A stretch of 64,000 bases of DNA from Candidatus Bathyarchaeia archaeon (lineage in GTDB: Archaea; Thermoproteota; Bathyarchaeia; Bathyarchaeales; Bathycorpusculaceae), in contig JAVZNE010000001.1 in the NCBI GenBank assembly GCA_038882975.1, forward strand, positions 288,001 through 352,000, given 5' to 3'. The notes under the pieces are model-generated. The model did no database searches. It was not told the origin of the DNA and was given only the letters and a program-made list of their open reading frames with translations. The position numbers and the translations under genes were made by a program. Shown piece after piece: positions 6,645 to 38,589 of this stretch (position 1 is the stretch's first letter; each line of letters opens with the position of its first letter).

Positions 6645-8163
6645 ACTTTTTCACACTCCTTAAGAGCTTATCGATGTCTGGAGGCTTTTCCTTGCCGGCA
6701 AGTTTGGTGGAGAACTCGGCAATTTTGGGCAGGTATTTGCTGAAGACTCCAAGGCGTTTGCGTTCTCTGTCCACGTGCTCTCTCCGCGTTAAAAAGCGTT
6801 GGAGTTGGCGTGCCACTTCCCTTAAGCCGTTGGCTATCTCCCGCCGGACTTCTGGTCTGTCGGCTATAAACTCTTTTCCAACAGTCTTGTAGGGGACTTT
6901 TGTGCTGCATATGTGGACAACTATGGCTATGGGCATGTCCGGCGAAACCTTGTAGCGCCGCCAGTTCATTTCATTTATGACCTTGACTGAAACGTCGCTT
7001 GCCTCGTCATAAAGAAGTGGAATGCGGTTGGCGAAGCGGTATATTAGGAAGCCGCCTTTCTGGGGAATTTCACCACCATAAGCTATTGCAACTTCAACAA
7101 TGAAGGGATGCCCAGCATAAGTAGCGGGCTTCCGCTGGTGAACCGCCACAAACTCTGGTTTAAGCTCTTTTAAAACGCCGGTTTTCAGCAGTTCCTCGCC
7201 GAGCGGTGAGAGACAACTGGCGTCTGGTGGGAGAAACTCCTTAAACTTTTTCAGCATGTGCATAAGCCGGACAATTTCCTCGTGGGATAGCTTCTTCGGG
7301 TTTTTGGAGGGGCTTATGCCACTGAACTCAAGGAATTTTCTGGCTGTTATTTCGCCCACGCGATGGAAGTGGTTTTTGAGAAACTCTAGCATGTTTTTGT
7401 AAGGCGTGACTTGTATGAGGCGTTGGAGAAGCTCCACATCAACGCCATATGGGTGGGGCAAAGTCTCTTTAGGCGGGTCTGGCATTACCGTGGTTGCTCT
7501 TGTAAACTTGTAAAGTCTTCCTTTAGGGTCTACAAAGGTGAGGTTGGCGTAGGGGTTCACCATGGCTGTCTGCTTGAAATATTCTAGGATTTTTGGCATA
7601 GCCCTCAAATAGTCGCCTTCAAGGCAGAATTCGACAATAGTGCCTCGCCAGCCCTCCTTGTTCAAAAAAACTTTTCTGTCGAGGATTATTGGGCGGTTCC
7701 TTTGGATGTCAATCATAAGCTTGTACATGTAAATCCGTGACATGCCAGTGCTGGAAATCACCATTGCTGGCTGGTGGGTTGTAATCTGCCCATATAAGAT
7801 GGCCATCTTTCCGCCTAAACCGAAGGTTCCCCTCTGCTGTTTCAGCTTATACTTTGAGCCGAAAAGCACTTGTCCGAAGGCTGATGGAATGTGCCTAGGC
7901 GGAACGCCGCAGCCGTTGTCCTCAACCCTTAGCTTATAAATCTGTGTTTCCTTGCTGGCTTCGCCCTCAAAGGAGAGTCTAACATAGATTTCTGGTGGGA
8001 TTTTGAGGCTTTCGGCGGCGTCTAAAGAGTTTTCCACGAGTTCGCGGATGGCTGCGAAAATGGCTCTTGTGGGGTTTGTGAATCCTGCTATGTCGCGGTT
8101 TCTGTAGAAGAAGTCTGATGCGCTTATTTCTTCGAAGGTTACCTGTGCCACGCTAGCCTCCAC
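6625..8163 (-). CDS. top6B: DNA topoisomerase VI subunit B
   Basis: GHKL motifs ELVENSLDA, VEDNGCG, RGTFGLG; overlaps top6A. Confidence 0.96.
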   Translation of the reverse strand: MEASVAQVTFEEISASDFFYRNRDIAGFTNPTRAIFAAIRELVENSLDAAESLKIPPEIYVRLSFEGEASKETQIYKLRVEDNGCGVPPRHIPSAFGQVLFGSKYKLKQQRGTFGLGGKMAILYGQITTHQPAMVISSTGMSRIYMYKLMIDIQRNRPIILDRKVFLNKEGWRGTIVEFCLEGDYLRAMPKILEYFKQTAMVNPYANLTFVDPKGRLYKFTRATTVMPDPPKETLPHPYGVDVELLQRLIQVTPYKNMLEFLKNHFHRVGEITARKFLEFSGISPSKNPKKLSHEEIVRLMHMLKKFKEFLPPDASCLSPLGEELLKTGVLKELKPEFVAVHQRKPATYAGHPFIVEVAIAYGGEIPQKGGFLIYRFANRIPLLYDEASDVSVKVINEMNWRRYKVSPDMPIAIVVHICSTKVPYKTVGKEFIADRPEVRREIANGLREVARQLQRFLTRREHVDRERKRLGVFSKYLPKIAEFSTKLAGKEKPPDIDKLLRSVKKFGVEGI

Positions 8164-31426: not shown

Positions 31427-31495
31427 AACTATTTAACCAACCGTAAGGAAAATAAAACACCTTCATAACCTTTATTGAAGAGCTGGAGCTTGCAA

Positions 31496-33805
31496 ATGGA
31501 AACAAAAAGTCTATCAAAAAAGGAAAAAATAACCAATGCCATCAAAAGTCTTGGAAAACTCCGTCCAAAAATAGACCACACATCAATAATGACCATGGCG
31601 GCTTTAACGCTTATACTTTTTATAGCCTTTACAATACGACTTTTTCCAATACGATGGGAAATAGACCCAACGACCGGCAAATCAAACCTTCTACTATCAG
31701 AGTTTGACCCATACTTCCAATACCGTTTCACAGAAAAAATAGTTAAAGATGGCTTTATCTCATGGGCTATAGAAAACGGAGGAGTGGGATGGATTGACCG
31801 GCAAAGATGGTATCCTCAAGGTTTCTATGTAGCTAAGTCCGCTTTTCCAGGGCTTCCAATGACCGCAGCCTTCCTCTACAAAATAGTTTCAATGCTCGGT
31901 GTAGGCATAGACCTCATGAGCTTCTGCGCCCTATTTCCAGCCATTATGGGAGCACTGGCATGTCTCGCCTTGTACTTCCTTGGAAAGGACATGGGCGGCA
32001 AACCAGTAGGCCTATTGGCCGCACTTTTCTTGGCCCTAGAACCATCTTATATTCAACGGACATCGGTGGGCTTCTTCGACGACGAAACCGTTGGGATACT
32101 AGCTTTCATACTTTTCATTTTCCTATTTCTAAGGGCAATCGATGAAGACAGACCAATAAGCTCAACAGTTAAGTACGCACTAGCCTCAGGATGCACTCTT
32201 GGATACTTCTGCGCCAGCTGGGGTGCTGCATACTATCCAATAGGTCTCACAGCCCTCTTCACCCTCATATTGTTGTTGACCAGGAGGTATACCCGTCACC
32301 TTTTTTTGGCTTACAGCATAACCTTTGGGTTAGGACTATTCATAGCCATAAACGTTCCATACCTCTCGCCAACCTATCTCTTGACAAGTGCCGTATTATT
32401 AGTGGCTGGTGTTTTTGGCCTGCTCTTCCTCGCAGAGCTTTTAGAAGCAGTGACAAGGCGGAAATGGAAGGTATTTGTGGTGGTAGCTTTTATAGCCTTA
32501 ATAATTGGAGTTTTTGCTGTTCTTTCGCTGGCAGGTTACATGCGGGGTATAACGGGAAAGTTTCTGTACGTTATAAACCCATTTGAACGTGAAACATCTC
32601 CTCTTTACGAGTCTGTGGCTGAACATAGGGTATCAGCGTGGGGCTCAATATATTATGAATTTGGCGTTATGATAATCTTCTTCATCATTGGGTTATTCTT
32701 CATTCTAGGAAACTTGAACAATAGAAACCTATTCCTACTTGTTTTCGGTTTGACATCTCTCTATTTTGCATGTTCAATGGTGCGGCTATTCGTGCTTATG
32801 GCTCCAGCCTTCAGTCTTTTGGCTGCTGTAGGGATAAGCGGGCTTCTGAAGCCTTTTGTAACATTGCTGAAAGAGCCGCCGCGGATAAGTGTCAAGAGGA
32901 AGTTTGGGCTGGAGCGTGTTGGAAGGGAATTCAGCGGCATGGCAGTATTCCTAATATTCTTGATGTTAATGGTGAACTTGGCTTTTCCAATGCCTAGAGT
33001 TTATACACAAGCTTACACGCCAACTACAATATCTGGGGGAAGCCTATCAGTATCGCCGCAGTACTTAAGTACACCAGTGAAGGAGTGGGTTGACATGTTA
33101 TATTGGATGAGAACAAGGCTAAGTCCAGATACTGTTGTGTGCAGCTGGTGGGATTATGGATATTGGATGACTGTTTTAGGGAATGTTACATCGCTTGCGG
33201 ATAACGCCACATTAAATGGAACACAGATACAAAACATTGGCTTCATATTTATGGCTAATGAGACGCAAGCAATGAGAATGTTAAAGCTTTACAATGCATC
33301 CTATATTCTTGTTTTCACAACCATTCGCGCTGACTCGGGTGAGTGGGTAAATGCTGGCGGCGATGAGGGCAAATGGGTTTGGATGGCAGCCATATCCGGA
33401 AAGGCACGTGAACGCTTCATAAACAATGGCTTCATTTCAGCAAATGAAATGTGGAACGAGAAACTTGACGATGTTAGAACAATGTTTGGAAATCTGACTC
33501 TTGGGACATATTGGCGAGATAGCAACGAAAATGGGTACTATGACAGTGGCGATTCCACATTCCCGTCACCTAGAGGAAATAATACAACAATTTACAAGTT
33601 AATGCGTTATGCGGTTGAAGCTTGGAAGCAAAAGCATGGTAAAGGTGGCTCGACGATTGAGTTGCTCTACTTTACACCAGAATACATCGCTGGACTAGAT
33701 TTAAATCCGGAAATCGCTAAAAATAGCTATGGCGGCGTTGTTCCGCTTGTTTGCCTCTATAAAATTAACTGGGAAAAATATTATAGCGAACATCCAAGCG
33801 GGTAA
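31496..33805 (+). CDS. aglB: oligosaccharyltransferase AglB (STT3)
   Basis: EFDPY, GFFDDE, SVAEH, WWDYG, DNAT, DEGKWVWM; many TM helices. Confidence 0.95.
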   Translation: METKSLSKKEKITNAIKSLGKLRPKIDHTSIMTMAALTLILFIAFTIRLFPIRWEIDPTTGKSNLLLSEFDPYFQYRFTEKIVKDGFISWAIENGGVGWIDRQRWYPQGFYVAKSAFPGLPMTAAFLYKIVSMLGVGIDLMSFCALFPAIMGALACLALYFLGKDMGGKPVGLLAALFLALEPSYIQRTSVGFFDDETVGILAFILFIFLFLRAIDEDRPISSTVKYALASGCTLGYFCASWGAAYYPIGLTALFTLILLLTRRYTRHLFLAYSITFGLGLFIAINVPYLSPTYLLTSAVLLVAGVFGLLFLAELLEAVTRRKWKVFVVVAFIALIIGVFAVLSLAGYMRGITGKFLYVINPFERETSPLYESVAEHRVSAWGSIYYEFGVMIIFFIIGLFFILGNLNNRNLFLLVFGLTSLYFACSMVRLFVLMAPAFSLLAAVGISGLLKPFVTLLKEPPRISVKRKFGLERVGREFSGMAVFLIFLMLMVNLAFPMPRVYTQAYTPTTISGGSLSVSPQYLSTPVKEWVDMLYWMRTRLSPDTVVCSWWDYGYWMTVLGNVTSLADNATLNGTQIQNIGFIFMANETQAMRMLKLYNASYILVFTTIRADSGEWVNAGGDEGKWVWMAAISGKARERFINNGFISANEMWNEKLDDVRTMFGNLTLGTYWRDSNENGYYDSGDSTFPSPRGNNTTIYKLMRYAVEAWKQKHGKGGSTIELLYFTPEYIAGLDLNPEIAKNSYGGVVPLVCLYKINWEKYYSEHPSG

Positions 33806-33817
33806 GGGAGAAAGCGT

Positions 33818-34684
33818 TTGTTTCCAAAGGTTCCGGATCAGCATAAGCCGGGCAAGCCACTGGTTCCAACTGGTTTAGGCGTCATATATGTCGTTGTGAG
33901 TGCGGCTTATCTTTTCTTTTTGCATGCCTTTGGATTTGATGTTGGTAATGTTTCTCCGGCTCTGACTTTGGCTGTTTGCATATTGTTTGGCGGTTTTATG
34001 GGTTTGCTTGACGATTGGATGGACTTACGATGGCGTTACAAGGCTTTCTTTCCACTGGTGGCAGCTGTTCCATTGATGGCTTTGGCTTACAGGATGGGTA
34101 TTGCCCGAACGGCTATTACGCTTCCATGGTTAGGAACCGTCAATTTTGGCGCATATTATTTCTTTATTTTGATTCCGCTGATTGTAACGGTGGTCACCAA
34201 CACTGTTAACCAGTTAGGTGGGCTGAACGGTTTGGAAACCGTTTGCCCCGCCATTGTTTTGATTGGACTTATGACTGCTTCTGGAAAAAACGCTGTTTTG
34301 TTAACGCTTCCTTTGGCTGTTTGGCTTGTGCTTGCCTTTTTCAATTTTCGAGGGAAAATTTTTGTTGGTAATACTGGCTCGTTTGCTATTGGAATTACTT
34401 TAGCTGCTTTTGCAATAATTTCAGATGTCAAATGGTGCTTACTGATTTCGCTTATACCCTACATAATCAATTCTTCCATGATTTTATTGAACTACTTCTT
34501 TTTCCGAACTAAAGCGAATGTCTCTTTCGATGGAAAGAGGCTCCACTCAGACCATAGGAGAAGCCTAATAACGCTCATTACTTATAAGCGGCCTATGACT
34601 GAGCGGCAAGTAGTTGCCGTTATAGCCTTTTTAGTTGCAGTTTCAACTTTTGCAGCTGTTGTTGCTCAACTCCTTTTGTTTTAG
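33818..34684 (+). CDS. aglH: UDP-GlcNAc:dolichol-P GlcNAc-1-P transferase (AglH/Alg7, MraY family)
   Basis: DQHK, GLLDD, NTVNQLGGLNGLE, KIFVGNTG; follows aglB. Confidence 0.82.
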   Translation: MFPKVPDQHKPGKPLVPTGLGVIYVVVSAAYLFFLHAFGFDVGNVSPALTLAVCILFGGFMGLLDDWMDLRWRYKAFFPLVAAVPLMALAYRMGIARTAITLPWLGTVNFGAYYFFILIPLIVTVVTNTVNQLGGLNGLETVCPAIVLIGLMTASGKNAVLLTLPLAVWLVLAFFNFRGKIFVGNTGSFAIGITLAAFAIISDVKWCLLISLIPYIINSSMILLNYFFFRTKANVSFDGKRLHSDHRRSLITLITYKRPMTERQVVAVIAFLVAVSTFAAVVAQLLLF

Positions 34685-34844: not shown

Positions 34845-35288
34845 GTGGATGTTACGAGTATTGTAGGGGTTAAGCTGGACATTAAAGGTGGGGCTGGGAC
34901 AGTTAATTTTGATGTTAAGGCAAGGCTTGAAGAGAGGGAAAGGCGAAGTCAAATGGTTGTTGTTGGCTTTAACCTCCAACTGACAACGAAACCTAGCATT
35001 GTTAAATTTGAGGTTGAAGGAACTGCAACGCTTACAGGGAAGGATACGGAGATAAACAAGATGCTGGAGGTTGACCCTGAAACAAAGGTGCCCTATGTTT
35101 TTCAGAAGGTTTATCAACACACTTTTACAACCATGTATTTGCTCTCAACTATTCTGAATACGCCTCCGCCACCAATAGACCTCCTCCTTTTCAGAGGGGA
35201 AGAAGCGTCAGCTGGGGGAGTTGCCATTGAGCCTGAAGCAGCCGTAAAAGTTGAGGGAGAGGCTGAAGAAGCGGAAAAAGAGGGCTGA
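34845..35288 (+). CDS. hypothetical protein, possibly SecB-like fold; start uncertain
   Basis: Alternating beta pattern, a helix, PPP and an acidic tail; frame open upstream to about 34791. Confidence 0.55.
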   Translation: MDVTSIVGVKLDIKGGAGTVNFDVKARLEERERRSQMVVVGFNLQLTTKPSIVKFEVEGTATLTGKDTEINKMLEVDPETKVPYVFQKVYQHTFTTMYLLSTILNTPPPPIDLLLFRGEEASAGGVAIEPEAAVKVEGEAEEAEKEG

Positions 35289-35299
35289 CAAAATAACAC

Positions 35300-35306
35300 T
35301 TTTATA
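35300..35306 (+). promoter_or_regulatory. putative TATA box of the queT transcript
   Basis: TTTTATA about 25 nt upstream of the GC-rich leader. Confidence 0.55.
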
Positions 35307-35331
35307 GTTGCTTTGTTGTTATGCTGTTTGT

Positions 35332-35391
35332 TGGCGGGTGAGTGGGACCTCCCACCCGTTCCGCCATATAAACCCCGGTGTAGGGAGGTGA
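35332..35391 (+). ncRNA. structured cis-regulatory leader, candidate translational riboswitch
   Basis: TGGCGG/CCGCCA and GTGGG/CCCAC stems; ACCTCCC complementary to GGGAGGT in the SD. Confidence 0.5.
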
Positions 35392-35395
35392 AAAA

Positions 35396-35899
35396 TTGAA
35401 ATTTGATAGTAAAGATTTGGCTTTGACGGTGGTTTTTGCGGCTTTGTATGCTGCTGGAGTGATTTTTCTGGCGCCCATAAGCTTTGGGATATATCAGGTG
35501 AGGGTTGCTGATGCGCTTTTGCCCTTGTCGGTGGTTTTCGGTATGCCAGTTGCCCTCGGAACAGGGGTAGGATGTTTGGTTGCCAACGTTTACGGTGGAC
35601 TGGGCATAATTGATGTTGTTGGCGGCAGTGTTGCAAATTTTGTTGCATGCGTTTTGGCTTGGCTTATCGGTGGAGAGAGTATTGTACGTAGACTCGTGGC
35701 GTGTTTCGTGGAGACCGTCACAATAACGATTATTGTTGGAGGATACTTGGCGCTTATATTCAATGTTCCAGTGGAGGTTGGATTGTTTGGCATTTTCATA
35801 GGCTCTATTGTAGCGATTAATATCCTCGGATTTGCGATTCTAGAGGCTTTAAATCGGAGCCGCATAGGCAAAAGATATGCGAGAAGCGGTGGAAACTAA
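35396..35899 (+). CDS. queT: QueT-family transporter (ECF S-component-like)
   Basis: AALYAA...APISFGIYQVRVADAL...GCLVAN...DVVGG signature. Confidence 0.85.
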   Translation: MKFDSKDLALTVVFAALYAAGVIFLAPISFGIYQVRVADALLPLSVVFGMPVALGTGVGCLVANVYGGLGIIDVVGGSVANFVACVLAWLIGGESIVRRLVACFVETVTITIIVGGYLALIFNVPVEVGLFGIFIGSIVAINILGFAILEALNRSRIGKRYARSGGN

Positions 35900-35904
35900 A
35901 AAAT

Positions 35905-38589
35905 TCACATGAAACGTTCCAGCTTTGTCAACCCTATTATTTCGTCGAAGTCTAAGCCTAATGCGTCTAAAACTTGGTCGAAGGTTGAGTGCAGATAAGC
36001 CACATATTTGTCCACATCTATCTCATTTTTCGTTGCTAGTTCCACTGGTTTTACGTGAGGCTCGTTCACCACCTTTACAAAGCTTATTAGGTCTCCGGCT
36101 TTGAGTTCCATTCCACTTTCTTTTAGGATTCTTGCGGCTTTCACGTGTTGTGGCGTTGTCTTTGTGTAGCGTTCTGGTTCTTCGCCTAAAACCACGTTGA
36201 AGGCTAGTTCGTTTAGGCTTTCCCATTCACGTCTTTTTAGGCGTATGTAACAGTCGCGGATTGTTTGGATAATATCTTTTTTGGCTGCTTCGAAGTCTGC
36301 TGGCGTTTTCACTGTGGCTAGGCGTTCTTTCATTTTGTCAAAAGCTTTCTTGATGAATATGGGGATGTGGCGTTTCTTGCCCGTCAAACCCTTAACGTCT
36401 ACACTTCCGTCTTCCAGTACACCCAGATAGTTCTTTTTGCGGGAGCTGAAGACTGCGTAGCGGTAAACCTTGTCCACGTCTAAGCCCATTTTAAGCTCGC
36501 GTTCAGTCCATTCTTCTAGTTCGTGTATTTGCTCTTTTGATGGGTTTTTTAGGAAGACGCTGTCTGTGTCGCCGTAAAGCACTTGTATGCCCAGCTCATC
36601 AGCCCTCTTAATTATTTGGGTTATGGCGTGCCTCCCTATGGCTGCTGTGGCTTCAGCCACTGGGGGGCAGTAGAGGTCGAAGGTTTCCGCTCCAAAAACG
36701 CCGTAGCTGGCGTTTAAAATAACTTTTAATGCGCCTTGAATAATATTGTACCAGCTTCTAACTTCTGGTGGCAGAGCCTTATCCTTAGATTTTGGCTTGT
36801 ACCATTGGACCCGCAAGTCCCTAAGGGAGCCTATTAGGAGGCTTTCTAGGGTGCGTTTTTTGCGGCAGACCCAGTGGGGCGTGTCCGGCACAAGGTTTGT
36901 TTGGCACTCTGGATGCCCACACAAGATGGACTGGTAGCCCAGGTTCCAAACTTTTATTATTGATGGGTATAGGCTTGGGAAGTCCATTACTGCGACGTTG
37001 AAGTGGACGCCTGGCACTGGTTCGACTACTATGGCGCCCTTGTATTTTTTACCCTTTATTATGGCTTTTGTGGCTGTCTTGCCCTTTAGGGCTAGTATGT
37101 CTTCAGCGTTTGGGATGAGCATTTTTTTTCTGCGGTGTTCGCGGTGCATGAAATTTCTTATCCAGCGGGATACGCCTTGTCGGCTTACATCCTCCATTGG
37201 CATGCTGCTTATCCTAGCCAAAACGAGAATCAACTTTAAGACCAGCTCGTCTTCGAAGCTTGTGAGTTTGTAGGTGATTTCGGCGTCTCTGAAGCAGTAT
37301 TTTGCAAGTTCCGTGTATGTTAGTTCGCCTATTCCCTTTTCAAGCGTTATCTTGTCCAAGCCCACAAGTGCCCTTCCAACGTCGCCTAAAGTTACGTCTC
37401 GGTAGCGGTTGTTGAAGGCGTAAATTTGTATGGAGCGGTTGAAGAAGAACTTGTAAAGGTCTATGTGAACACCATACTTTAGGAGGCAAACCCGTTTGCC
37501 AATCTCTATTGGGATTTCATCCCTCTTAAAGCCGTGGTTTTCTGCTCTATGCGCTAAATATCGTAGGTCGAAGTCGTCGCCATTGAAGGTTATCACAAAT
37601 GGGTAGTTCCACAAAACCTCAAAAACAGCCCTTATCAGCTTCTCTTCAGAATCGAAATATTCTATTTGAACGTCTGCTGGTAAACGTTCCGAGCCCTCGC
37701 GAACCCCTTCCCTTTTTAGGAGGAGAACCCGCTTTTGCCCATCTGAACTGTATAGGGAGACACAGACTATCGGGTAGGCTGCCTCGCGGGGGTCTGGCAT
37801 CCGGGTTGGTATGGGCGAGTAAACCTCAATGTCCATGGCGACATAACGGAACTTTGGAGCCGGATACTCCAGAAGCCTAGCCCACTGCTCGATGTATTGA
37901 CGTTCTTCAGCGGCAGCCCCCTTAAAAGTGCTAACTATTTGCTGAATCGTTTTCTCCGCCTCTTCTAGGCGTTTTGACACAAGATTGCCATTCTTAACCT
38001 CGTAAACCATACCGGGCAAAAGTCCACGATCATAAATGTAGGATTGGTAGTACTTTATCTTGGACTCCCAAACTTTGATGGATTCTACAGAAACTGGAAC
38101 ATCTGCAACCTTTGGAAAGTCCTCTGGAATAATATCCCTTATGCAGCCTTTTGGGCGTCCCCCAATAGCCAGCGGGTCCTTAGCCACAATCTTTGTCACT
38201 TTGACCGGCTTATCCAAAAGGGGGTCAAACTTCTCCTCGATTTCAAAGTGATCGAAGCCCGGATGCTTCATTAATCGGTCGATTTTTTCAAGCTCGAATG
38301 GCGAAAGGTTTGTGTAGCAGTAGGGCTTATGACCAGTGTTATCATACCAGAAGTAGATTCGCCCAGAAACCGGCTCGTAAAGCTTTAGGAGGGCTTTTCC
38401 AGCTTTGCCATCATAAGTGGCTGAAACAAAATATGAGGGGGGAAGGTTTTCAGGCGCTGTTGGCGGAAAACCCCTCTGTTTTCGCTCTTTTTCTATGGAT
38501 TCTGTGAAGGGTAGGGCTTCCGCTTTTGGTTCTTGGGGCTTAGCCACCGGTATTGAAAACTCGTCTAATCGCCTTTGAGCCATAACCAC
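35905..38589 (-). CDS. polB: family B DNA polymerase (B1-type), no intein
   Basis: MDIEV, FNGDDFD, DFPSLYPS, KVILNASYG, YGDTDS, KKNY; PIP-like QRRLDEF at the N-terminus. Confidence 0.95.
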   Translation of the reverse strand: MVMAQRRLDEFSIPVAKPQEPKAEALPFTESIEKERKQRGFPPTAPENLPPSYFVSATYDGKAGKALLKLYEPVSGRIYFWYDNTGHKPYCYTNLSPFELEKIDRLMKHPGFDHFEIEEKFDPLLDKPVKVTKIVAKDPLAIGGRPKGCIRDIIPEDFPKVADVPVSVESIKVWESKIKYYQSYIYDRGLLPGMVYEVKNGNLVSKRLEEAEKTIQQIVSTFKGAAAEERQYIEQWARLLEYPAPKFRYVAMDIEVYSPIPTRMPDPREAAYPIVCVSLYSSDGQKRVLLLKREGVREGSERLPADVQIEYFDSEEKLIRAVFEVLWNYPFVITFNGDDFDLRYLAHRAENHGFKRDEIPIEIGKRVCLLKYGVHIDLYKFFFNRSIQIYAFNNRYRDVTLGDVGRALVGLDKITLEKGIGELTYTELAKYCFRDAEITYKLTSFEDELVLKLILVLARISSMPMEDVSRQGVSRWIRNFMHREHRRKKMLIPNAEDILALKGKTATKAIIKGKKYKGAIVVEPVPGVHFNVAVMDFPSLYPSIIKVWNLGYQSILCGHPECQTNLVPDTPHWVCRKKRTLESLLIGSLRDLRVQWYKPKSKDKALPPEVRSWYNIIQGALKVILNASYGVFGAETFDLYCPPVAEATAAIGRHAITQIIKRADELGIQVLYGDTDSVFLKNPSKEQIHELEEWTERELKMGLDVDKVYRYAVFSSRKKNYLGVLEDGSVDVKGLTGKKRHIPIFIKKAFDKMKERLATVKTPADFEAAKKDIIQTIRDCYIRLKRREWESLNELAFNVVLGEEPERYTKTTPQHVKAARILKESGMELKAGDLISFVKVVNEPHVKPVELATKNEIDVDKYVAYLHSTFDQVLDALGLDFDEIIGLTKLERFM

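Follow-up and report, generated by a model that had tools for sequence, protein, structure and literature searches.

The stretch of DNA analysed here, called the window below, comprises 64,000 nt of Candidatus Bathyarchaeia archaeon (JAVZNE010000001.1) and carries, at positions 35331–35389, a leader element immediately upstream of the gene queT. This element is an archaeal cis-regulatory RNA which is real, widespread and archaea-specific. It probably represents a new class of translational OFF-riboswitch, a small-molecule sensor located in the queT 5′ untranslated region (UTR) and responding to a 7-deazaguanine, most likely preQ0. The fold of the window sequence alone is modestly better than chance; the finding is far above chance because the element is conserved and covaries in more than 170 other genomes.

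The gene that follows is an open reading frame (ORF) of 167 aa on the + strand (35396–35899), present in the ORF list of the window and starting with TTG. It matches the QueT family PF06177 (E 5.4e-26; 92 bits against a gathering cut-off of 33.7) over residues 9–153, which correspond to profile positions 2–140 of 141; no NCBIfam model matched it at E up to 1e-5. QueT is a predicted S component of an energy-coupling factor (ECF)-type transporter for a 7-deazaguanine, with preQ0 as its presumed cargo.

A first-pass annotation of the window had described in this leader a TATA-like box, a GC-rich block with two alternative folds and a Shine-Dalgarno (SD) sequence, and on rereading the DNA every one of these features was found where it had been placed. 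The TATA-like promoter box TTTTATA occupies 35300–35306 (+ strand), and similar hexamers pile up in the upstream regions of relatives. TGGCGG (35332–35337) faces CCGCCA (35361–35366), GTGGG-ACCT-CCCAC lies at 35342–35355 and ATATAAA at 35366–35372, and ACCTCCC (35347–35353) is fully complementary to GGGAGGT (35383–35389).

Read as RNA from the same strand, the element opens with the 5′ strand of an outer stem, P1 (UGGCGGG, 35332–35338), whose covarying 3′ strand is UCCGCCA (35360–35366). Directly after the 5′ strand comes a joint U-G-A (35339–35341), conserved in base identity and proposed as part of a binding pocket. The loop of P1 holds GUGGG (35342–35346), which in the minimum free energy (MFE) fold is the 5′ strand of an inner hairpin, P2, and competes with a pseudoknot for CCC(AC). 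It also holds the anti-SD strand ACCUCCC together with its extension A-C and C-C-G (35347–35358), pairing with 35383–35389, 35380–35381 and 35376–35378, respectively. A conserved linker U (35359) separates the pseudoknot strand from the 3′ strand of P1. The A-rich linker that follows (35367–35375) has the near-invariant pattern A-n-A-A-A-n-C-C-C and is proposed to run along P1 and to form part of the pocket. The 3′ side of the pseudoknot extension (35376–35381) consists of C-G-G at 35376–35378 and G-U at 35380–35381, both pairing with the loop, and compensatory pair sets mark the SD itself, GGGAGGU (35383–35389), located 6 nt ahead of the TTG codon, as the pseudoknot's 3′ strand. The MFE fold of 35325–35400 is the nested hairpin which the first-pass annotation called Fold A (−29.6 kcal/mol, z −2.18; 4 of 200 shuffles fold as well), and the best duplex between loop and tail is its Fold B with the extension (ACCUCCC-AC-CCG : CGG-n-GU-a-GGGAGGU, −19.9 kcal/mol).

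A search with the QueT protein against the host genome and 40 relatives gave matches in 36 of the 41 genomes and returned 30 loci. In 29 of these, with QueT identities down to 33% (33–45%), the motif lies within 160 nt upstream of queT and displays the same order of blocks: GGCGGGUGAG, a loop, CCACCCGUUCCGCC, an A-rich stretch, AAACCCCGG, about 4 nt, (G)GGAGGU and the start codon. At the thirtieth locus (L012), the queT in question comes third, behind queC, in an operon of the order motif-queT-queC-queT, which the motif heads. The earlier proposal had been staked on conservation of the leader, and the motif is indeed present in the queT operon at all 30 loci.

The element extends far beyond these relatives. 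Scanning one genome per species for the exact pattern produced at least 120 stretches. The whole motif is present in at least 65, and all 65 among the matches listed come from archaeal metagenome-assembled genome records. Most bear the label Bathyarchaeota/Bathyarchaeia and a few Methanomethylicota/Methanomethylicus or Nitrososphaerota/Nitrososphaeria; one carries the label Promethearchaeati, and the labels of some read simply "archaeon". Another 55 of the at least 120 stretches lack the tail; nearly all belong to GC-rich bacterial records and were taken as chance matches. A covariance model built from 87 distinct copies detected the element once in the host genome and in 93 of the 151 genomes sampled from the class (72 of the 95 high-quality ones). 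In the phylum sample, 29 of 151 genomes had a match, including members of families outside the class (f44, 9/15; f56, 3/3; f60, 2/2). Of 121 genomes from a second phylum, that of the Promethearchaeati-labelled genome, whose named records are Asgard, 21 also carry the element, and all 12 records retrieved with a pattern for the variant of this phylum are labelled Promethearchaeota, Hermodarchaeota/Hermodarchaeum, Thorarchaeota or "archaeon". As the genomes are related samples, these counts describe spread and not independent events; Euryarchaeota-type groups and DPANN lie outside the sampled genomes. A relaxed pattern gave no match in viral contigs.

At the lower end, the model (R1) has no clean cut-off: true copies (L197, L198) score 20.8–21.5 bits, and the weakest matches, at 20.5 bits before ribosomal protein genes (L222, L237), and two at 23.2 bits before an unknown membrane-like ORF (L223, L235) were treated as false positives. 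One genome includes a third copy (L193, G155:C281) which is AT-rich and altered at otherwise invariant positions of P1, of the tail CCC and of CGG, and is still followed by a QueT-like ORF; this copy may be in decay or have been retuned.

Sequence comparison supports both helices. Alignment A4 comprises 93 distinct copies and, since the pseudoknot helix was not included in the model behind it, the fit does not bias that helix. In P1, the third pair (columns 9:62) is GC in 67 copies, AU in 21 and CG in one, the seventh (13:58) is GC in 85 and CG in seven, and the flanking or second pair (8:63) is AU in 22 and UA in 22. In the second phylum the third pair (9:61) is AU in 14 copies, GC in three, UG in three and CG in two. 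Stem P1 is therefore supported by compensatory change in these alignments. Its closing pair (14:57) is G.U in 91 of 92 copies of A4, and a near-invariant G.U pair argues for an RNA rather than a DNA element.

The helix between the loop and the ribosome-binding site (RBS) is paired in 81–90% of cells. Its covariation score is 0.206–0.243. Shuffles gave 0.104–0.120, with 0 of 500 as high as the observed score, and controls with a slid partner did not exceed 0.093. Duplexes between a loop and its cognate RBS have a mean energy of −13.08 kcal/mol and permuted ones −11.51 (sd 0.23), and 0 of 3000 permutations of the 79 distinct loops were as low. The pairing that the first-pass annotation had seen between anti-SD and SD is maintained by compensatory changes through a range of pair sets: ACCUCCC:GGGAGGU, GUCUCCC:GGGAGGC, CCUCCU:AGGAGG, CUUCCUAC:GUAGGGAG, GCCCCCU:AGGGGGC and CCCUCCU:AGGAGGG, as well as CUUCCA:UGGAAG and UCCGAC:GUCGGA and, in the Asgard-labelled group, CCUCGCA:UGCGAGG and UUCGCA:UGCGAA. 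Together, P1 and the loop-RBS helix support an H-type pseudoknot. This modifies the earlier view that the two folds are mutually exclusive: outer P1 coexists with the SD pairing, and only the inner GUGGG/CCCAC competes with it and is lost in several sub-lineages. The family also agrees with the proposed lengthening of the pseudoknot by AC/GU and CCG/CGG. The CCG:CGG part is invariant or nearly so and carries no covariation information, whereas the C:G pair at 35:68 is CG in 48 copies and UA in four on alignment A2 and, on A4, CG in 50, UA in nine, AU in two and UG in two, with 18 unpaired. The extension is missing in type B, where the tail reads CCCC-AAAA.

P2 is an optional competitor outside the core of the element, to judge from its distribution. 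Its cells are paired at 90.7% in the main type (A2), and its 5′ strand is absent or replaced by unrelated sequence in L048, L072, L149, L127, L045 and L140 and in types B and C. For the window RNA, P1 contributes −10.6 kcal/mol, P1 with P2 about −21, and the pseudoknot duplex −14.7 over 7 bp or −19.9 with the extension. These duplex energies precede any pseudoknot loop penalty; on this rough estimate the hairpin and pseudoknot states are similar in stability, as a switch requires.

More than 15 unpaired positions are near-invariant across the two phyla. The joint after P1 is U in 91 of 91 distinct copies, G in 88 and A or G in 89; the linker U is U in 86 of 91, C in three and A in one. In the A-rich linker, A77, A78, C80 and C81 are present in all 91, A75 and C82 in 90 and A73 in 89. 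A conserved, structured and covarying element, such as is generally expected of a riboswitch, is what these data describe, and the fixed TATA-like box discussed below suggests that it occupies a 5′ UTR. Two other structures were examined and rejected. An alternative register for P1 and P2, CGGGUG:CACCCG, considered by eye, is broken in type B and C variants while P1 covaries. A kink-turn is marked by tandem G.A pairs, and none were seen by eye.

The genes downstream belong to a single pathway. According to Pfam, the first ORF after 63 copies is QueT in 59 cases and a Radical_SAM + Fer4_12 protein in four. For each of these four, the five best NCBIfam matches are all QueE models (E 1e-25 to 1e-31) and near full length, at scores under the equivalog cut-offs. 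A tblastn census of 152 distinct places found by regular expression left 149 that could be assessed, one being a bacterial chance match and two being cut by contig ends. The earlier tie between leader and 7-deazaguanine genes proved general in this census: queT comes first in 145 of the 149 (43 as queT-queC) and a QueE-like gene in the other four (three as queE-queC). The second-phylum set, with two further copies from genome G315, comprises 23, one of which is cut by a contig end; queT comes first in 21 of the 22 assessable copies and queE in one. G315, the genome of locus L051, carries three copies, before queE-queC, queE and queT-queC. QueC following queT or queE in these operons was confirmed by Pfam. 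Of the 151 genomes in the class sample, 39 contain QueC (E up to 1e-20), and 29 of these have it within 2.5 kb downstream of the motif and on the same strand. The motif is always in sense orientation ahead of its gene. Genes of the 7-deazaguanine pathway thus lie downstream of every assessable copy (149/149 and 22/22), the one-pathway association that is generally looked for in riboswitches.

Some operons show further variation. At one locus (L131:5243–6691 and 6744–7412), the motif and queE are followed by a 483-aa fusion of GATase with QueC and then by a DUF2848 protein; DUF2848 may have a place in the archaeosine/7-deazaguanine pathway. In one lineage (L155:369–941, L165:2105–2695, L174:2140–2712), the gene directly after queT repeatedly encodes a DUF998 membrane protein of about 191–197 aa. 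At L185 (G123:C145) the ORF after the motif has just 101 aa and QueC begins about 300 nt after the motif; this queT may be frameshifted or truncated.

The gene content of the host bears on the identity of the ligand. Its genome, 94.7% complete, includes one tRNA-guanine transglycosylase (TGT) gene (282.7 bits, in a 555-aa frame). QueC gave only N-terminal partial PP-loop fragments in longer ORFs and QueE just weak, partial, generic radical-SAM matches, so that neither queC nor queE was found; QueD/PTPS and QueF gave no match in this genome, which is no proof of absence. This pattern suggests a salvage lifestyle dependent on imported preQ0. In five other genomes, 94–98% complete and with a motif-queT-queC arrangement (G040, G034, G118, G130, G098), no QueD/PTPS match and only weak generic radical-SAM matches to QueE were obtained, which suggests that they import 7-carboxy-7-deazaguanine (CDG) and convert it to preQ0 with QueC. 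As a separate observation, the host TGT-domain gene (PF01702) is the only one, and a distinct ArcS-type paralogue was not seen.

PreQ0 is 7-cyano-7-deazaguanine, the product of QueC. It would be the most economical ligand because near-identical RNAs head queT alone, queT-queC and queE-queC, whose common product is preQ0, and it is favoured over preQ1 because of this gene set and the host gene content. It is also the base inserted by the archaeal transglycosylase (PMC5372724). For preQ0 specifically we put the odds at about even.

The following mechanism can be proposed. The RNA would start a few bases before the GC-rich P1, the loop of which holds the anti-SD. At low ligand concentration, the loop would be folded on itself (in the window by GUGGG/CCCAC, which lengthens P1 into a long hairpin) or undocked, the SD would be free, and QueT would be made. 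At high concentration, the ligand would bind at the junction of P1 and the pseudoknot and lock the latter, burying the SD and the sequence that reaches to about 6 nt from the start codon and so turning queT translation off. The pocket would be formed by the near-invariant unpaired bases around the helix junction, namely U-G-R, the linker U and A-n-A-A-A-n-C-C-C.

To our knowledge, very few riboswitch classes have been described in archaea. Thiamine pyrophosphate (TPP) and fluoride riboswitches are reported there and are shared with bacteria. The present element would resemble them as a cis-acting sensing leader of archaeal mRNAs and differs from them in that its motif was found in archaeal records only. 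Across the 64-kb window, no Rfam 15 family reached its gathering score. The three preQ1 families, which we take to be RF00522 (preQ1-I), RF01054 (preQ1-II) and RF02680 (preQ1-III), had been singled out for comparison in the first-pass annotation, and none matched at E up to 10 in 35000–35700 or in 20 variant loci. The sole match to the leader at E up to 10 was a chance match to an unrelated small RNA.

Likenesses to all three bacterial classes nevertheless exist, and we describe them from a 2024 preQ1 riboswitch review (PMC11625349) and from PMC5372724. Like preQ1-I, the element has an H-type pseudoknot in which the loop pairs with the 3′ tail, and an A-rich linker after P1 (PMC11625349). PreQ1-I also places the SD, or part of it, in its second helix, controls queT and que biosynthesis genes and acts as an OFF switch for a 7-deazaguanine (PMC11625349), the direction that we propose here. 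In contrast to preQ1-I, the element is about twice as long, with a GC-rich P1 of 7–8 bp and a second helix of 7–12 bp. The 3′ strand of P1 is preceded by U (86/91) and U (91/91), compared with UC or AC including the specificity cytosine in preQ1-I (PMC11625349). The element has so far been found only in archaea, and its likely ligand is preQ0 as opposed to preQ1. With preQ1-II it shares the association with queT (COG4708) and the placing of the SD fully within the pseudoknot helix ("Full SDS occlusion"; PMC11625349, PMC5372724): GGGAGGU at 35383–35389 is the 3′ strand of the covarying helix and is predicted to be occluded in the same way. PreQ1-II is built on an HLout pseudoknot with U-A-U triples (PMC11625349), whereas the present element has neither a U-rich strand nor an embedded linker hairpin. 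As in preQ1-III, a hairpin-loop anti-SD docks onto an SD in the 3′ tail (PMC11625349). That class measures about 100 nt and folds with five pairing regions and two pseudoknots (PMC11625349), compared with about 60 nt and two or three helices here (P1, the pseudoknot and the optional P2). The proposed switch logic is that of the bacterial preQ1-I and preQ1-II classes (PMC11625349). The review distinguishes three classes; the phyla in its list are all bacterial, and the word archaea does not occur in it (PMC11625349). In our search of full-text literature, with supplements and subscription journals outside its reach, neither a queT nor a preQ0 riboswitch of archaea was found described.

One point against a riboswitch is that an RNA-binding protein could read the leader instead, an alternative which we think improbable. 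An enzyme of the pathway, for example tRNA-guanine transglycosylase or QueC, or else an unknown regulator would stabilise or open the pseudoknot that buries the SD; the conservation, gene-association and structural data would fit such a protein equally, tgt is present in the host and autoregulatory protein-bound leaders exist in archaea. Against this, the leader precedes unrelated gene families (queT, queE, queC) in two phyla and would need a shared trans factor, for which no candidate is linked to the loci. Its small size (about 60 nt) and invariant unpaired bases at a helix junction also form the usual picture of a small-molecule aptamer. Moreover, in bacteria the same gene set is regulated by preQ1 riboswitches (PMC5372724, PMC11625349).

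Still less probable is a constitutive structured 5′ UTR which senses nothing and serves to tune translation, stabilise the mRNA or respond to temperature. A pairing that buries the SD will lower translation with or without a ligand, and both the modest z value of the single-sequence MFE (−2.18) and the patchy conservation of P2 would agree with such a role. A UTR of this type does not account readily for the confinement to 7-deazaguanine genes in all 149 and all 22 assessable copies, for the more than 15 near-invariant unpaired positions held across two phyla or for the single copy in the host genome.

The position of the promoter bears on the third alternative. Across 177 distinct upstream regions, TATA-like hexamers peak between −35 and −29, counted from the P1 core; 83 of these regions have one starting at −40 to −28, where the A+T content peaks at 0.76–0.84. 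With the usual archaeal spacing between TATA box and start, transcription would begin a few bases before P1. The first-pass annotation had named a start driven by the inner TATAAA as the case that would undo its proposal. This inner ATATAAA was rejected as a promoter: its second base is T in 38, G in 30, C in 14 and A in 9 of 91 distinct copies, 30 of the 91 having A-G-A-A-A, so it is not kept as a TATA box, while the upstream box holds a fixed distance. We give hardly any credence to a DNA-level operator and promoter, in which a transcription factor would recognise the inverted repeat of the block and the TATA box of queT would be ATATAAA at 35366, whose distance of about 30 nt from the TTG codon would suit a leaderless archaeal mRNA, because the TATA-like box of fixed position lies upstream of the whole element, a strong SD is conserved at canonical spacing, the stems preserve pairing over sequence (including the invariant G.U and other G.U pairs), the loop-RBS pairing shows compensatory changes and the element always stands in sense orientation before its gene.

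The remaining points on the opposing side concern the evidence for the riboswitch itself. The assignment is a putative one, which we regard as probable. PreQ0 is drawn from gene content, and CDG, preQ1, archaeosine base and guanine are alternative candidate ligands. RNA-seq gave nothing usable, and the transcript start is accordingly a prediction: three raw-read metatranscriptomes yielded 0, 0 and 3 reads, none on the leader, and in a fourth run the contigs match only the motif (35331–35394), with unlike flanks, and so derive from relatives, one of them extending 214 nt upstream. Many pairs of the conserved core never vary and are hence uninformative, among them five of the eight P1 pairs in A2 and CCG:CGG. 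Columns 30:75 and 31:74 reflect a joint one-base shift of register (CCUCCC/GGGAGG versus CCUCC/GGAGG) and not independent compensation. Any CCUCC complements any SD, so that the core pairing is weak evidence and the flanking pairs carry the weight, and the relatedness of the sequences makes the shuffle controls overstate significance. For the invariant tail CCC, neither a partner nor a role emerged: the GGG of the loop, the GGG of the SD (as a small hairpin) and the CGGG of P1 were checked, and none of these pairings is kept across types A–C. Finally, as P2 is not conserved in types B and C, the "switch" of many lineages may be a simple stabilisation of the pseudoknot.

Beyond the putative riboswitch in the window, a broader proposal can be formulated, for and against which we see about equal grounds. 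The element would add a fourth structural class to the 7-deazaguanine riboswitches; this class would be the first one native to archaea and selective for preQ0 over preQ1. It would be common to TACK (Bathyarchaeia, Methanomethylicus-like and others) and Asgard (Hermod-, Thor- and Promethearchaeota-labelled) archaea, and would govern a salvage regulon (queT, queT-queC, queE-queC) by which many genomes seem to import preQ0, or the earlier intermediate CDG, instead of making it. If so, RNAs that sense metabolites would have arisen independently in the archaeal stem leading to eukaryotes, or have been kept there, and this would be the first sensor tuned to the archaeosine precursor. It would also provide a compact SD-occluding pseudoknot for archaeal genetic tools and make 7-deazaguanine salvage in uncultured archaea directly testable, including the CDG route (queT-queC present, queD and queE not found).

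None of the neighbours of queT in the window is linked to 7-deazaguanine metabolism. The neighbouring ORFs lie at 31475–33805 (+), 33818–34684 (+), 34845–35288 (+) and 35905–38589 (−). They include a glycosyltransferase family 4 gene (Pfam), a putative 776-aa membrane ORF (from the ORF list) and, at 34845–35288 (+), a 147-aa ORF with no Pfam match. On the opposite strand, an 894-aa ORF with a YGDTDS-type motif looks by eye like a family B DNA polymerase.

Two observations concern the ends of queT. In the two nearest relatives (L002, L003), QueT stops two codons earlier (165 compared with 167 aa), which explains a flag of "TGA inside match" and gives no signal of recoding. At the 5′ end, in the queT genes of L075, L082, L108, L109, L148, L026/L040 and L161, the codon found equally far from the SD is ACG or CTG instead of the TTG, ATG or GTG of close relatives, and the ORFs called by program begin further downstream at these loci; these archaea may use non-canonical start codons.

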